The notes under the pieces: model-generated
The model's input: only the letters and a program-made list of their open reading frames with translations
Databases searched by the model: none
What the model was told of the DNA's origin: nothing
Assembly (NCBI GenBank): GCA_964202905.1
Contig: CAXNJO010000003.1
Span: 320,001 to 384,000 of the forward strand
DNA: 64,000 nucleotides
Reading direction: 5' to 3'
Source of the DNA: Polyangiales bacterium
GTDB lineage: Bacteria; Myxococcota_A; Polyangia; Polyangiales; JADJQN01
Made by a program: the position numbers and the translations under genes
Part shown: positions 48,625 to 57,767 of the stretch, piece by piece
Layout of the letters: each line of letters opens with the position of its first letter
How positions within the stretch are numbered: the first letter of the stretch is position 1

Positions 48625-50730
48625 TCAGCGAATCGCGCGCAGATCCGCGCGGTCCGCGTCTCGCGAAAACACGGGCGGACTGCCGATCGGCGCCTCTGCG
48701 GTGACGGTCCGCCCACCGTCGTAGACGGCGCCGGTCCACACGTGGAACCACCTCCCCGGCGGGAGATACACGGACTTGGTGACGGCGCCCTCCTCGACGA
48801 CCGGTGCGATCAAGAGATCACGGCCGAGCATGAATTGGTCGTGGATCGCTCGGCTCGCGAGGTCGTCGGGGAACTCGTACGCGAGGTGACGGATCATCGG
48901 GGCGGAGGTCGTCGCGGCGTCGTCGGCGAGCGCGCGGAACTCCGGGCCGAGCGCCTCGTGGATCCGCGCGAACCGCGCGAAGTGCGCGATCGTCTCCGCG
49001 TCGCGGTTCCAATTCCAGTTCGCGGCCGGCATCAAGCCCTCATGCGTCCGCATGATGGGCGAGAACGCGCCGAGCTCCGTCCAGCGCAGATAAAGCTCTT
49101 TGCTGCTCGGACCGCCGCTGTATCCAGCGATGTCGTGCGTGACGTACGGGACGCCGGAGACACCGAGGTTGAGCAGCGCGGGGACCACCGTGGGCAGTCC
49201 GTCGGTTTCCAGGAAGTCAGCCTCCTGATCACCAATCCACACGATCTGCTGCACCGCGTGGTCGCGCGTCCAACCGCTCCGCGAGAAGACCGCGTAATCG
49301 CCGTCGGGGCGCAGCGCGTCCATCACGTCACGCGAGGCTTTGTGCCACGCGGCCGGATACAGGTTGTGCAGGAGCCGCGCGTCGCCCGCGAAGAGCTGCG
49401 CGTCGGTCGGGAGCCACTCGCCGAAGTCGGCCATCCAGCCGTCGAAGCCGAGGTCGGTGACCATCGCGCTCAAGAAGCCCTCGACGTAGTCGTACGTCGC
49501 GGGGTTCGTGAAGTCTGCGAGAGAGCCCGGCGTGAACGTCGCGGGGAAGACGTACGTCGCGCCGGTGGGGTCACGAATGAGCAGCCCTCGCGCCTCCATC
49601 GGCGCGAAATGCTCGAGGTCTTCGATGACGAAGGGGTTGGCGTACGCGAGAAAGCGGACGTCGTGGTCGGTGCGGAGTGTGCGCACGAGCTCGGCGAGAT
49701 TGGGATAACGCGCTTCGTCCGCGGTCCAGCGATAGTAGATGTCGAACACCGTCGGCGTGATGTTTCGTCCGCCGACCCAGTCCTGGACCCACACCGCCGA
49801 GAACGGAACGGCGGCGGCCTCGAGCTGCGCCACCTGCGCGAGCACGACGTCGCGCCCGCCTTGCATGCCAATCCACGGCGAAAAGGCCCAGTCGGGTGGC
49901 CGCTGCGCACGGCCGATCTCGTCGCCGAGGGCACGCACGACGTCGCTCGGCCGGGGTCCGTGGAAGACCAGCACATCGAACGGCGCCGCGTCCTCGACCT
50001 CGACCCAGGCGACCTGCGGGTTCGATCGGCAGAGATCGACGAGGGTGCGGACGGGTGTGTCGATGAGCACGCCGAATCCGCGCCAATCGAGCCACCATGG
50101 CATCGGGAAATAGGTGGTGTGCGCATTGCCACTCAGCAAACTGCGGCCCGAGCGCCCAATCCCCTGCTCCTGCACCCAGAGCGGGAATGCGTCACCACGC
50201 TGGTCGGTGTCGTCGTACTGCGCGCCGAAGCCCGCGAAGCTCGCCGCGGCGTCGCAGGCGAATGGCACCGCGATGGAGGAAATCGTGGGCCCCGCGGCGG
50301 TGTAGCGGATACGCGTCGACTCGGCGGGCCGGGCGACGCTGACCCGCGCTTCGATGGTGAGTCCGTCGTCGCCGGCGTAGCGCAGCGTCACGCCGTCCGG
50401 GCCCTGCTCGCTGCCGAGGAAGCGAGAGGCCGGACGCACGACCTCCTCGCTGCGTGTGAAGCGGAAGAAGCCCGAGGCTCGCGACACCCCCTGCGCGAAG
50501 CTGCGCGCCGTCGGCGCGTCCGCGGAGGTGGTCGACGCGAGCGCGCGGCCGTCCGCGGTCTGCACGGCGATCGCCCCGCGGCCATCGATCTCGATGCGCG
50601 TTCCGTCCTCGAGGGTGTAGCTCGCCGGCGGGAGAGCCGGCGGGGCGGCAGGTGTGTCGTCCGCGGAGCAGGCCGACGCGCAGAGGAGCAGGGCGAGGGC
50701 CAGCGGGCGGGAGAGCGCGGGGCGGGGCAT
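48625..50730 (-). CDS. Glycoside hydrolase family 31 lipoprotein (YihQ/sulfoquinovosidase-like clade)
   Basis: Lipobox ASAC; WVQDW, YANPF, GWMADFGEWLP (nucleophile), WIGDQ, HDIAGY, MRTHEG, QFMLGRDLLIAPV. Confidence 0.9.
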   Translation of the reverse strand: MPRPALSRPLALALLLCASACSADDTPAAPPALPPASYTLEDGTRIEIDGRGAIAVQTADGRALASTTSADAPTARSFAQGVSRASGFFRFTRSEEVVRPASRFLGSEQGPDGVTLRYAGDDGLTIEARVSVARPAESTRIRYTAAGPTISSIAVPFACDAAASFAGFGAQYDDTDQRGDAFPLWVQEQGIGRSGRSLLSGNAHTTYFPMPWWLDWRGFGVLIDTPVRTLVDLCRSNPQVAWVEVEDAAPFDVLVFHGPRPSDVVRALGDEIGRAQRPPDWAFSPWIGMQGGRDVVLAQVAQLEAAAVPFSAVWVQDWVGGRNITPTVFDIYYRWTADEARYPNLAELVRTLRTDHDVRFLAYANPFVIEDLEHFAPMEARGLLIRDPTGATYVFPATFTPGSLADFTNPATYDYVEGFLSAMVTDLGFDGWMADFGEWLPTDAQLFAGDARLLHNLYPAAWHKASRDVMDALRPDGDYAVFSRSGWTRDHAVQQIVWIGDQEADFLETDGLPTVVPALLNLGVSGVPYVTHDIAGYSGGPSSKELYLRWTELGAFSPIMRTHEGLMPAANWNWNRDAETIAHFARFARIHEALGPEFRALADDAATTSAPMIRHLAYEFPDDLASRAIHDQFMLGRDLLIAPVVEEGAVTKSVYLPPGRWFHVWTGAVYDGGRTVTAEAPIGSPPVFSRDADRADLRAIR

Positions 50731-50870: not shown

Positions 50871-52628
50871 TCAGCGGTTCGCGCGTCGGGTGACCGAGAA
50901 GGTCACGCGACGGTTGGCCGCGTGGTCTTCCTCGGCATCGCCCTGCCGCTCGAGCCGGGTGCGTCCATGCGCCGTGGTCTCGAGCCTCGACGCAGCGACG
51001 CCGAGCTCGATGACCATCTGCCGTACCCGCGTCGCGCGACGGCGGCTGAGGTCCAGGTTGTACTCGGGATCGCCCATGTCCGAGGCGTGCCCCTCGAGCG
51101 TCACGACGAGCCACTCGGGGTGCGCCGTCATGAGGCGCACGATCTCCGCGAGCCCTTCGCGCGACGCGCTGGTCGGCTGCGCGCTGTCGTGCGGGAAGTA
51201 GATGCGCGCGGTGAGACCGCGGAGCGCGGCTTCCTCGGCGGACTCGTCGGGACAGCCGTCCTCCTCCTGCCAGCCGTTGACCGTCTCCGGCTCACGCGGG
51301 CAGCGGTCCTGCGGGTCGAGGATCCCGTCCGCGTCGTCGTCGGGGTCGGGGCAGCCGTCTTCGTCTTGCCAGCCGTCCGCGTCTTCGGGTTCGTTGACGC
51401 ACGCGTCGGTCGCATCGAGGATGCGGTCCCGATCGGTGTCGGCGCCATCGGGGTCCGGGCAGCCATCTTCGTCGGCGACGCCGTCCCGATCCTCGGGCTG
51501 CCGCGGGCAGGTGTCGGCCGCGTCGAGAACGCCGTCGCCGTCGTCGTCCGGGTCAGGGCAGCCGTCGTCGTCCTGCCAGCCGTCCGCGTCCTCGGGCGCT
51601 TCCGGACAGCCGTCCACGGGGTCTCGCAGACCGTCTCCGTCGCGGTCGGCGTCGCGGATCGGCCGCTCCGCGTAGCCCACGGTGAGCACCGCGCGGACAT
51701 CCGGCGCGCCGACGCCGCGCGTCAAGCCCGTGCCCAGCGCAGCGCCGATCTCGAGGCCGGGAATCGCCTGCACGCGCGCCCCCGCGAGCGCCTCGATGGG
51801 CGCACCGACGCGGGCCGCGGGGGTCCCGAGGGCGTCGAACGCCACGCCGCCAAACCCCTCCACGTAGACCGCCAGCAGGTCTGGCACCGCGTCGAAGGTC
51901 GTCCCCAGCGCCCAGGTCAACTCCGGGCCAATCGTGAGGTTCGCGACCTCGGCCGCGCCGCTCGTGCGGAAGCGCCCGCCGATGTTGCCCGTCACGCGCA
52001 GGCGCGTCATCGGGCGGAGCTCGAGCAACACCGTCGGGGCGACGGTCGCGCCGACCTCTCCCGAGTAACGCTGCGCAGCGTTCGCCGCGCCCGCCGTGGG
52101 CAACGTGAGCGTCAGCTGCACGCCGACCGCGAACACCTCGCCGGGCTCACCCCAGAGGCGGCCGCGCGCGCCGAGCCAGACGTCGCCGAGCCCCGCGCCG
52201 GCTCCCGCCGGAAGGCCCTCGATCGCCGTGCCCGATTGCACGAGATCCACGGGCAGGTTGGCGAACACGACCAGCCGATCGAAGAGGCCGAGCGAGAGCC
52301 CGAGGTGCGCCCGCAGGGCGTGTTCGACCAGCGCGCCGGACTCGCTCGACGCGGTGCCCGCGACGGACTCGACGACCAGCGGCGCGAGGGCGTAGTCGAG
52401 GTCGAGCCGGGCGCCCATCTGCAGATGACCGCGGTCGTCGGGGCGCGACACGACGAATCCGTCGTCCACGCTGACCGCCGGCCGGTACTGGTCGAGTTGA
52501 AAGGCGTTGGTGATCGTCCTGGGCGGAGGCTGCGCCTGGGCAACGCCAGCGCCCCCTCCCACGAAGACGAGCCCGAGCGCGAGTACGAGCCGCCCCGCCA
52601 CGCGGAGCACCGCATGCCGGAGCCGCAT
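50871..52628 (-). CDS. Outer-membrane protein: N-terminal beta-barrel + TSP3 Ca-binding repeats + OmpA-C (TraB-like)
   Basis: Signal peptide, barrel strands (GLGDVWLGARGRL, APDVRAVLTVGY), DRDGDG..D..DGCP..PED.DGWQD.DGCPDPD repeats, IYF..DSA, LEGHA, NLDLSRRRA, NRRVTF. Confidence 0.9.
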   Translation of the reverse strand: MRLRHAVLRVAGRLVLALGLVFVGGGAGVAQAQPPPRTITNAFQLDQYRPAVSVDDGFVVSRPDDRGHLQMGARLDLDYALAPLVVESVAGTASSESGALVEHALRAHLGLSLGLFDRLVVFANLPVDLVQSGTAIEGLPAGAGAGLGDVWLGARGRLWGEPGEVFAVGVQLTLTLPTAGAANAAQRYSGEVGATVAPTVLLELRPMTRLRVTGNIGGRFRTSGAAEVANLTIGPELTWALGTTFDAVPDLLAVYVEGFGGVAFDALGTPAARVGAPIEALAGARVQAIPGLEIGAALGTGLTRGVGAPDVRAVLTVGYAERPIRDADRDGDGLRDPVDGCPEAPEDADGWQDDDGCPDPDDDGDGVLDAADTCPRQPEDRDGVADEDGCPDPDGADTDRDRILDATDACVNEPEDADGWQDEDGCPDPDDDADGILDPQDRCPREPETVNGWQEEDGCPDESAEEAALRGLTARIYFPHDSAQPTSASREGLAEIVRLMTAHPEWLVVTLEGHASDMGDPEYNLDLSRRRATRVRQMVIELGVAASRLETTAHGRTRLERQGDAEEDHAANRRVTFSVTRRANR

Positions 52629-55619
52629 CACGCGCCCCTCCGACGGCGCAGGACGAGCGCCAGCAGGCCGAGCGCGAACAGCACCGAAGCGCCCCATGAC
52701 CCGCCCGTCGCCGGGTGCGCGGAACAGCCCGCGCCGCCCGCGACGCCGAACAGGCGCGGACCGGCGTCCGGCTCGCCCGCATCCGGCATACCGGCGTCCG
52801 ACTCGCCCGCATCGGGCGCGCCGGCGTCCGGCTCGCCCGCATCCGGCGTGCCCGCGTCGGGCATGCCCCCGTCGAGTTCCTCGCGACACGTCGCGGAGCA
52901 GCCGTCGCCGGACATCCGTGTTCGCCGTCGTCGCACATCTCGCCGGCCGGGGCGTTCAGCACGCCATCCCCGCACGACACCGCCGTGCAGTCGGCGTCGC
53001 AGGCCGCCGTCTCGGTCAGCGTCGTCGCACACCTCGCCGGCCGCCACGTTCACGGTGCCGTCTCCGCACGACACCGCCGTGCAGTTCCCATCACAGAGGG
53101 GGGTCTCCGTGCCGTCGTCGCAGGCCTCCCCGGCGTCGATGACGCGGTTGCCGCAGCTCTCGAGCGCGCACGTCGCGGAGCAGCCGTCGCCGGGCACCGT
53201 GTTCCCGTCGTCGCAGACCTCGTCCGCGAGAGGGTTCAGCGTCCCGTCGCCGCACATCACGGCCGTGCAGTCCGCGTCGCACACGGGCGAGGCGTCGCCC
53301 GCATCGCAGGCCTCACCCGCCGTGGCGTTGGATGTCCCATCGCCGCAACGCGCGAGGGAGCAGTCTGCGTCGCACATCGCGCTCTCGGCCCCGTCGTCGC
53401 AGGCCTCCCCCGCGTCGACGACCGCGTTGCCACACGCTTCCACGCGGCAACGGGTCGAGCAGCCGTCGCCGTCCGTCGCGTTCCCGTCGTCGCACTGCTC
53501 GGCGGCGAGCGCGTTGAGCGTCCCGTCGCCGCAGACGGCGGTCGAGCAGTCCGCATCGCACATCGCGCTCGCGGCCCCGTCGTCGCAGGCCTCCCCGGCC
53601 GCCGCGTTCCGCGTCGCATCGCCGCACGATGCGACCGTGCAGTCCGCATCACACGCCGCGCTCTCGCCGCCGTCGTCGCAGGCTTCGCCCGCGGCCCCGT
53701 TCAGCGTCCGGTCACCGCAGAGGGCCGCCGTGCAGTCCGCATCGCACATCGCGCTCGCGGCCCCGTCGTCGCAGGACTCCCCGGCCGCCGCGTTCCGCGT
53801 CGCATCGCCGCACGATGCGACCGTGCAGTCCGCATCACACGCCGCGCTCTCGCCGCCGTCGTCGCAGGCTTCGCCCGCGGCCCCGTTCAGCGTCCGGTCA
53901 CCGCAGAGGGCCGCCGTGCAGTCCACGTCGCACGTCGCGCTCGCCCCCGAGGTGTCGCACTCCTCGAGCACGTCGGTGAATCCGTTGCCGCAGACCTCGC
54001 GTCGGCAGGTCGTCGAGCAGCCGTCGCCACCGACGACGTTGCCGTCGTCGCAGGCTTCCCCCGCGGCGCCGTTCAGAGTCCGGTCGCCGCAGAGCGCCGC
54101 GGTGCAGTCCGCGTCGCACGTCGCGCTCGCCCCCGAGGTGTCGCACTCCTCGAGCACGTCGGTGAACCCGTTGCCGCAGACCTCGAGTCGGCAGGTCGTC
54201 GAGCAGCCGTCGCCACCCACGGCGTTGCCGTCGTCGCAGGCTTCCCCCGCGGCGCCGTTCAAAGTCCGGTCGCCACAGAGGGCCGCGGTGCAGTCCGCGT
54301 CGCACGTCGCGCTCGCGGCCCCATCGTCGCAGGCCTCGGCACCGACCCGCAGGCGGTCGCCACAGATCGACGTGCAGACGCTGGGCGAACCCGCGCAGTT
54401 CCAGCCGGGCTTCGACACCGCACGCGGCGTCGCACCCGTCGCCGGACCCCGCGTTTCCGTCGTCACAGGACTCCGTGCCTTCGACCACCCCATCGCCGCA
54501 CACCGAGGGCGTCGTGCAGGAGACGGATTCGGCGACCGAGCCTGGCGAGAGCGCGTACACGAAGGAGAACGAGCTCGACGCGCCCGGGGCCAGCGTCTTG
54601 CGGAACGCGATCGAGATCGCGATGTCGCCCGTCACGACCGACCCGGTCGCACACGTCAGACCGGCGCAATTCCAGACGCCATCGACGTCACGGTTCGAGA
54701 AACCGCCGTGCGTCACCCGCGCGTCGGGATCCGACGAGCCCAACGCGATGTAGGAGTCCGGGGCGCTCGTGGTCGCGCTGACCAACGCGAGCGAGGTGGG
54801 CGTCCCGTCGCCCTGCGCGACGATCGTGTTCGTCGTCCCGTAATTTCTCGTGACCGAGACCATGTTGTCCGGATCGACGTTGCGCATGTAGTAGACGGTC
54901 TGCGTCGAAGACGTCCCGTTGGTCAGGGTGACCTGGACGAGGATGAACACACCCTCGTTGAACACCGAGTAGGTCTGGTCGACCCCGATGCCGGCGGCGC
55001 TGCCCGACCAATACGTCGAGGCTCCCCCGCGCAGACCGCAGATGCGAGGGCGGCAGTCGGTTCGGGCGCCGGTGAAGTCGCCCACGATGCCGCGCTGGCT
55101 CATCAGCCGACTCGTGAAGTAATCAACGCCGCCGACGTTCAGACCAAAGCCCTCTTCGGGCGTGCCGGGCGTGAAGAAATCCCCTTGGAAATTGACCCAG
55201 CCGTCGTCGCTCGGGTTGGCGACGAACCCGAACCGGCTGGGGTTGTCGGGATTCCGGGGATGCCAACCGGCGGGCGGGGGTGTCGGGGTCCCGAAAGACC
55301 CCCAGTCGGTCGCGCCGACCTCGATCAACCTCGAGCGCAGGAACGACGAAGTCCCGACCGGGTCGTAGAGGACCTCGCAAAAGGCATCGCAGCCCGCCAG
55401 GTCCACCGAGCGCCCGCCGCGCGTGCGTGGGCAGATGTCACGGACGTTCGGCACGCCGTCGCCATCACCGTCCTGGGCGAACGCCGTGGCCGGCGCGAGC
55501 ACGGCGAGGACGAGGCCCAGCCGAAGGAGGCCGAGGCCCTGCAGCCTGCGTCGCACAAGGCCCACATCCTTCGAGCGCGATCGCGACGACACGTTCACGA
55601 CTGGGGCAGTCTGAGACAT
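52628..55619 (-). CDS. Cell-surface Cys-rich repeat adhesin with MYXO-CTERM (TraA-like architecture; frameshift near 54410 and a compensating pair near 52910-53020)
   Basis: Signal peptide ...APATAFA/Q, one TSP3-like motif, head of about 300 aa, many CGDG...GEACDDG (DUF4215-type) repeats, PDAG linker, GGAGC + TM + RRRR tail. Stop overlaps the next ATG (TGATG). Start is 55619 or GTG 55565. Confidence 0.85.
53546..54300 (-). repeat. Four in-frame 186-bp (62-aa) tandem blocks forming two near-identical pairs
   Basis: Blocks start at 53546, 53732, 53918 and 54104; 1 vs 2 and 3 vs 4 are near-identical at DNA level. Confidence 0.85.
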
Positions 55620-55752: not shown

Positions 55753-56768
55753 TCAGCCCTCTTCCGCCTTGTGACACGCGACCTCGTGCCCGGGCGCGAC
55801 GGCGCGGAGCGGCGGGGGCTTCACGTCGCAGAGGCCGCGCTCGACGATCGGGCAGCGCGGGTGGAAGCTGCAGCCCGTGGGCGGGTCGAGAGGGCTCGGC
55901 ACATCGCCCTCGAGCAGGATCCGCACGCGCTTCTTCGTCGGGTCGGGGACGGGGATCGCCGAGAGCAGCGCGCGCGTATACGGGTGTTTGGGGACGTCGT
56001 AGATCCGCGCGGAGGGCGCGATCTCGACGACGCGCCCGAGATACATGACCGCGACGCGGTGACTCATGTATTCGACGACCTTCAGGTCGTGGGCGATGAA
56101 CAGATACGAGAGCCCGAGCTCGTCTTGAAGGTCTTTGAGCAGATTGACGATCTGCGCCTGAATCGAGACGTCGAGCGCGCTGATCGGCTCGTCAGCGACG
56201 ATGAAGCGGGGCTGTACGGCGAGCGCGCGCGCGATGCCGATGCGCTGCCGCTGCCCGCCCGAGAACTCGTGCGGATAACGCGTCATCTGATCGGCGCGCA
56301 GGCCGACGCGCACGAGGAGCTGCGCGACCTTGTCCTCTTCGTCCTTGCCCGAAGTGACGAGCCCGTGGATGCGCATCGCCTCGCCCACCGTCTGCCGCAC
56401 GGTCATGCGCGGATTCAGCGAGCTGTACGGATCCTGGAAGATGATCTGCATCGAGCGGCGCAGCGGGCGGAGCGCGCGCTGCGGCACGTGCGTGATGTCC
56501 TGACCATCGAAGCGGATGGTGCCGCTCGTCGGCTCGATGAGCCGCAGCACCACGCGGCCGAGCGTGCTCTTGCCACAGCCCGACTCGCCGACGAGCCCGA
56601 GCGTCTCGCCGGGCGCGATCGAGAGCGACACGCCGTCCACGGCGCGCACGGCCCCCTTCGCGCGGCCGAAGAAGCCGCCGCGCACCGCGAAGTGCCGCGT
56701 GAGCCCTTCGAGCTCGACGAGCGGCGCCCTCGCGTCGGTCGATGGGGCCTCGTTCGTCTCCGCGCCGC

Positions 56769-56772
<4 letters not shown>
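55753..56772 (-). CDS. oppF: Oligopeptide/dipeptide ABC transporter ATP-binding subunit
   Basis: [44 protein letters not shown]. Confidence 0.92.

Positions 56773-57767
<995 letters not shown>

Follow-up and report, generated by a model that had tools for sequence, protein, structure and literature searches.

A TraAB-like gene pair of a Polyangiales bacterium with a non-TraA head and a paralogous TraB-family barrel

The question raised by the locus described here is whether two genes with the layout of traA and traB are a traAB pair, a new recognition system, or a further use of the same architecture. The locus lies in a stretch of 64,000 nucleotides (hereafter the window) of a Polyangiales bacterium (assembly GCA_964202905.1, contig CAXNJO010000003.1, positions 320,001 to 384,000), and consists of gene A, encoding a passenger protein that ends in a MYXO-CTERM tag, and gene B, encoding an outer-membrane barrel followed by TSP3 and OmpA regions (Table 1). 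The pair is a real variant of a known design and one of many mix-and-match versions of it.

Both genes are on the minus strand, with the limits given in a preliminary description made from the sequence alone. This had proposed a gene of the order signal peptide, head, Cys-rich stalk, linker and MYXO-CTERM, translationally coupled to a barrel-TSP3-OmpA gene, and the domain searches and the sequence agree with this order. Gene A starts at an ATG at position 55619, preceded by a GGAG ribosome-binding site (read from the sequence), and its TGA stop codon (52630-52628) overlaps the ATG of gene B at 52628, which confirms the TGATG overlap; an in-frame GTG at 52631 is an alternative start of gene B. 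The three head motifs quoted earlier (YMRNVDPD among them) are present in gene A, and the stalk was matched by TIGR02232/DUF4215 (155.9 and 86.1 bits), as had been claimed. The TSP3-like N-terminal repeat of gene A also occurs in the proteins P0001-P0004. The C-terminus of gene A was recognized as MYXO-CTERM by its profile score and has the invariant Cys, the transmembrane helix and the Arg tail, and a myxosortase core was found in the same genome (Mrt_core 119.7 bits, cut-off 100). The gene B barrel is of the PF13557 type, and its TSP3 region was matched by Foldseek to the periplasmic part of Capnocytophaga OmpA.

As assembled, gene A has three frame switches, and single bases are absent there from contigs of four lake metagenome runs, all belonging to one study (Table 1). 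When four bases were dropped by script, the repair for which the preliminary description had called, a single frame of 995 amino acids with 79 Cys and no internal stop was obtained. The frameshifts look like assembly errors, because one paralogous barrel gene and one fused paralogue in the same assembly are likewise frameshifted. An intact relative of gene A is P0001 (91% head identity), and the closest relative with a name, at 91% over the head, carries the label uncultured Sandaracinus. At locus L213 the intact pair was found in the same gene order with different flanks, which bears out the synteny in relatives on which the earlier proposal depended.

Judged from its sequence the pair is not traAB, whose defining features are a variable domain of PA14-like type, repeats matching TIGR04201, and a TraB orthologue (described in PMC3325183, PMC6372800, and PMC13184517). 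The TraA models TIGR04566 and NF033759 had no match in the gene A pieces, in the intact P0001 and P0002, or in the genome (94% complete), and control TraA proteins scored 342-374 and 682-1061 bits; a profile comparison of the gene A head with the TraA N-terminus gave a probability of 0.2%, in line with the earlier impression that the head is not that of TraA. TIGR04201 repeats were not found in the stalk, whereas control TraA proteins match this model. Gene B scored 133 bits on the TraB model NF033763 (cut-off 700), compared with 525-570 bits for TraB encoded beside true TraA in the same taxonomic order and 954 bits in Archangium gephyra. In a tree of 106 barrels the five TraB grouped by themselves (support 1.00), far from the clade in which gene B sits with three paralogues encoded by the same genome. 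A clade of gene B with TraB was rejected (log-likelihood difference 145, approximately unbiased (AU) test p 0.0015, 2,000 replicates, 43 of the 106 barrels). Hence of the modular TraAB-like variant proposed earlier the layout, the non-TraA head and stalk, and the conservation of the pair in relatives stand, while membership in traAB does not.

Compared with TraA/TraB of Myxococcus xanthus, the pair shares the overlap of a signal peptide-head-Cys stalk-linker-MYXO-CTERM gene with a barrel-TSP3-OmpA gene, and the barrel families are homologous. It differs in the head (a predicted supersandwich), in the stalk repeats, in a gene B that is a paralogue outside the TraB clade, and in that its relatives show reversed gene order or fusion. 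In genome G135, which also carries true traAB, four fused genes with PA14 head, tag and barrel (L102-L105) were observed; their barrels branch as sisters of the TraB clade, and these fusions are candidates for the origin of TraAB. The true traA and traB of G380 (L187:5355-9785) are present as one frame of 1476 amino acids with the tag in another frame, probably owing to an assembly frameshift.

The evidence that passenger and barrel belong together comes from their repeated association. Among 19 Myxococcota/deltaproteobacterial loci with the gene A head, 11 have a TraB-family barrel, either fused (3), upstream (6) or downstream (2), and two others are at a contig edge; among the other head loci such a barrel was found at 1 of 57. 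Four further head proteins (P0080, P0121, P0127, and P0156) are head-tag-barrel fusions. In the genome of the present pair a tagged gene is fused to, or lies next to, four of the nine barrels, namely the four closest relatives; by chance this has P about 2e-5 (with ~34 tags and roughly 5,100 genes, the paralogues being non-independent). In A. gephyra 10 of the 13 barrels examined have such a fused or neighbouring tagged gene on the same strand, and two more have tagged neighbours on the opposite strand. The pairing is not by chance. The present locus has the features of this design: a tagged passenger is encoded next to a PF13557-type barrel that carries TSP3 and OmpA parts, and relatives keep the combination. 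The preliminary description had held that an OmpA protein outside the TraB clade, among generic paralogues, would help to refute its proposal; gene B does lie outside, but the paralogues are not generic, as most of the closest have their own MYXO-CTERM passengers.

The passenger domains are unrelated (Big_13, Kelch, NIDO, PA14, DUF11, ASH, and TSP_C), barrels carrying the same head are only 23-36% identical to each other, and the arrangement at the G302 barrel is divergent. A fused design has been noted in one Discussion paragraph (PMC11980579) for MXAN_5598, in which an internal MYXO-CTERM is followed by barrel and OmpA. It resembles the present pair in joining a non-TraA adhesin to a TraB-like barrel/OmpA part, and MXAN_5598-like fusions occur in relatives of the present locus (L022, L037, P0080, P0121, P0127, and P0156); it differs in that genes A and B are separate, and the likeness is to the published description. 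At L024:373-7816 a single barrel gene precedes two consecutive passengers of the tagged type.

A short segment of the tag may be connected with this pairing. Partnered tags share a hydrophobic-small-Gly-Gly(-Ala) segment before the cysteine, where most unpartnered tags are acidic. The strict form of this motif was present in 3 of the 33 listed tags of the pair's own genome, all of them partnered (it is present in the fused C5 tag as well), in 1 of 66 tags of G332 (the fused gene), and in the passenger beside the closest barrel of G302, which had not been seen before the motif was set. In A. gephyra a loose form matched 6 of the 9 barrel-proximal tags and 0 of the 16 distant ones (Fisher p 0.0005), most of the positives having already been seen before the pattern was set. 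A link between this pre-cysteine tag subtype and the possession of a barrel partner is suggested only tentatively: the segment could serve in docking, or the tags could just be of common descent. Eight frames of G000 with an internal MYXO-CTERM followed by more in-frame sequence (Table 1) were also observed, and in three of them this added sequence is a lipoprotein-like start (..GC[ED]VDPYC) with Cys-rich repeats, while LAS-GGG stands before the tag cysteine; these three may represent another tag subtype and a polyprotein of tag and lipoprotein.

The head is a domain of ~270 amino acids that had no family match in the gene A search, and its fold is predicted to be a galactose-mutarotase-like beta-supersandwich. 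Across 243 sequences 51 of 273 positions are at least 80% conserved, including D60, E68, D162, D164, D245, W54, and W117, and the head starts within 130 amino acids of the N-terminus in 217 of 242 cases. It is conserved across phyla, with ~40% identity to Bacteroidota type IX cargo; the type IX signal forms the C-terminal end of 35 of 42 Bacteroidota head carriers. The best structural matches are non-catalytic N-terminal domains of the galactose-mutarotase-like set (GH94, GH116, GH15, and the P1 domain of YidC), to which its sequence identity is at most 14% and from which it differs by standing alone at the tip of surface proteins, with no catalytic partner domain. Neither the head family nor the tag subtype was found in the limited library of literature searched, and both are new here. 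Three further observations concern the head. In a Spirochaetales-labelled bin (L074:8848-15291) it is carried by an MBG/fn3 protein that ends in a cut-down GGGCSC tail and is directly followed by a TraB-family barrel-OmpA gene. P0023 and P0029 are low-GC head proteins that contain a tag-like stretch internally and, at the C-terminus, a divergent part resembling a barrel, which scored only marginally on the barrel profile. Among the atlas feature neighbours of P0050 is a cluster with the label 96% Archaea (Promethearchaeota), and some structure neighbours are in tailed phages.

Upstream of gene A two oligopeptide ATP-binding cassette (ABC) ATPase genes directly adjoin the pair (window 55753-57767, minus strand). 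A probable lipoprotein resembling GH31 alpha-glucosidases is encoded on the same strand 140 bases downstream of gene B (window 48625-50730), and no GH31 relative was found in any other head locus searched. The neighbours differ in relatives, and the pair therefore moves as a unit.

Table 1. Coordinates of the features of the gene pair (window positions) and of the G000 frames, with the basis of each assignment
Feature	Position	Strand	Basis
Gene A, passenger with MYXO-CTERM, 995 aa after removal of four extra assembly bases	52628..55619	-	
Predicted signal peptide of gene A, ending A-F-A	55476..55619	-	read from sequence
Single TSP3-like acidic repeat, mature N-terminus of gene A	55383..55475	-	PF02412 18.5 bits, under cut-off
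Head, unnamed domain of 273 aa, galactose-mutarotase-like beta-supersandwich by prediction	54540..55358	-	
Cys-rich stalk, 17 CG[DN] repeats, TIGR02232/DUF4215, not TIGR04201	52886..54506	-	
Low-complexity DAG-x-P linker of gene A	52760..52885	-	sequence
MYXO-CTERM tag, hydrophobic-small-Gly-Gly-Ala segment before Cys	52631..52759	-	TIGR03901 over cut-off; alignment of partnered tags
Gene B, TraB-paralogous barrel-TSP3-OmpA protein, 585-586 aa	50871..52631	-	
Predicted 12-stranded outer-membrane barrel of gene B, ordered N-terminal coil before barrel	51666..52517	-	structure model
TSP3 calcium-binding-type repeats of gene B	51222..51656	-	PF02412 over cut-off
OmpA peptidoglycan-binding domain of gene B	50889..51206	-	PF00691 55.6 bits
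Frameshift 1, extra assembly base	54407..54411	.	base absent in 4/4 runs
Frameshift 2, extra assembly base	53016..53018	.	base absent in 3/4 runs
Frameshift 3, two extra assembly bases	52914..52922	.	base absent at 52914/52917 in 3/4 runs and at 52922 in 1 run; frame analysis
G000 internal-MYXO-CTERM frames	C1:260368-268518, C4:69728-78517, C5:309630-316673		
Further G000 internal-MYXO-CTERM frames	C2:762035, C6:126355, C6:352983, C3:414205, C10:115628		

With moderate confidence we favour the reading that the pair is a surface-display module, in which the barrel would hold the tagged adhesin on the surface and tie it to the cell wall, and the head would bind an external ligand, for example a glycan. 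Export of gene A would be by Sec, its tag would be cleaved by the myxosortase and the protein delivered to the surface on lipid, as known from MYXO-CTERM biology (PMC11980579). It would then dock on gene B, probably via the short segment just before the tag cysteine, the one part common to passengers that are otherwise unrelated, and load would pass through TSP3 and OmpA to the peptidoglycan, making the protein a load-bearing adhesin; the head would bind a carbohydrate-type ligand. The steps seen directly are the domain order, the overlap, the repeated pairing or fusion of passengers with barrels, and the myxosortase-type gene in the genome. Precedents are the predicted 1:1 complex of TraAB with an anchoring role of OmpA (PMC12045341) and the barrel-held cargo with an OmpA-type partner of the type IX type B proteins (PorP-PorE-cargo, PMC9143113; the OmpA domain of PorE is based on a match to NF052230 and a structure title). 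In the latter, too, a barrel encoded alongside holds a surface protein with a C-terminal tag and is linked inward through an OmpA-type part, the same head is carried by type B cargo, and a PorP/SprF barrel is encoded by the gene next to the type B signal in 6 of 16 cases; tag, secretion route and barrel family differ, which makes this an analogy and not membership.

Several results weigh against this reading. Six of the 19 head loci have no adjacent barrel, among them the 74%-identical L021, and the barrel is therefore not obligatory in cis. Barrels without a tagged neighbour occur in the gene B clade (L194, L201, L202, L209, and L055) and in other barrel clades of the pair's own genome. The tag motif was derived from partnered tags seen first; in its strict form it was found in 1 of 30 tags of G394, for which no adjacent barrel is known, and in 0 of 25 tags of A. 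gephyra, and in its loose form in 12 of 65 unpartnered tags of G332 and 2 of 29 readable tags of G394. True TraA is without the motif, and the fold shared by the head shows no function. Given the varied pairings and the lone barrels, heads, stalks and barrels have been shuffled; the larger design includes TraAB as one of its members. A wider version of the display-module reading, which we regard as doubtful, would make TraB-family barrels a general wall-anchored docking platform that reads a sub-code of the MYXO-CTERM tag (hydrophobic-small-Gly-Gly ahead of the cysteine) and carries interchangeable heads. TraAB would then be a specialised member, and in myxobacteria without TraA, the present one included, modules with the new supersandwich lectin-type head, which type IX cargo also carries, would supply anchored contact and perhaps membrane exchange.

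It is unlikely that the pair is instead a new self-recognition and outer-membrane-exchange system that stands in for TraAB where the lineage has none; in such a system heads would bind their like on kin cells and the anchored barrel would let membranes fuse. The layout and gene overlap are the same as in traAB (PMC6372800), OmpA anchoring converts TraAB adhesion into exchange (PMC12045341), no TraA was found in the 94%-complete genome with positive controls, and the head-carrying barrels of Haliangium/Kofleriaceae-labelled loci group near the TraB clade. Against this, gene B lies outside that clade (AU p 0.0015), and the head is shared with Bacteroidota and other phyla; because of this ~40% identity a common external ligand fits better than a kin badge. 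In addition, eleven listed differences in near-identical contigs came down to two conservative substitutions (weak evidence from one study), and the PA14 paralogue MXAN_4924 is described as dispensable for exchange (PMC3325183). The conservation of head versus barrel was not discriminating, and a between-genus comparison does not separate TraA from the gene A head. For the specific role in kin recognition or membrane exchange that the preliminary description had put forward, we found no support beyond the layout.

It seems improbable that the head is a carbohydrate-active surface enzyme (like a mutarotase, lyase or hydrolase) which the stalk presents for feeding and not for sticking. The non-catalytic nature of its best structural matches, with identity to solved matches of at most 14%, does not favour an enzyme, other head loci searched have no GH31 relative, and the stalk and the distal position of the head are adhesin-like.

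A barrel serving mainly as a channel dedicated to exporting or assembling the passenger, in the way of FapF, and not as an anchor, is quite improbable. The solved barrels nearest to the gene B model are the 12-stranded polypeptide transporter FapF and the COG4313 channel (PF13557), and co-encoding and fusion are frequent; gene B differs from these in its additional TSP3 and OmpA domains and in having no amyloid operon. The modelled barrel with its N-terminal coil would be narrow for a folded, disulfide-rich protein of 995 amino acids, MYXO-CTERM proteins use the type II system (PMC11980579), and TraA and TraB localise independently (PMC12045341). Very improbable, finally, are two co-expressed envelope genes without physical partnership: each gene occurs without the other in some genomes, but the repeated fusions, both gene orders, the divergent arrangement in G302 and an enrichment far above chance argue against it.

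According to a 2026 preprint (bioRxiv 10.64898/2026.07.10.737566), TraB homologues are present in 85 of 90 Myxococcota genomes, TraA in only 29. The present locus shows partners of many such extra TraB-family barrels, and the label TraB homologue should not be read as membrane exchange. The head is now delimited as an unnamed surface domain that crosses phyla, and the locus bears on the question of what TraB does for TraA.

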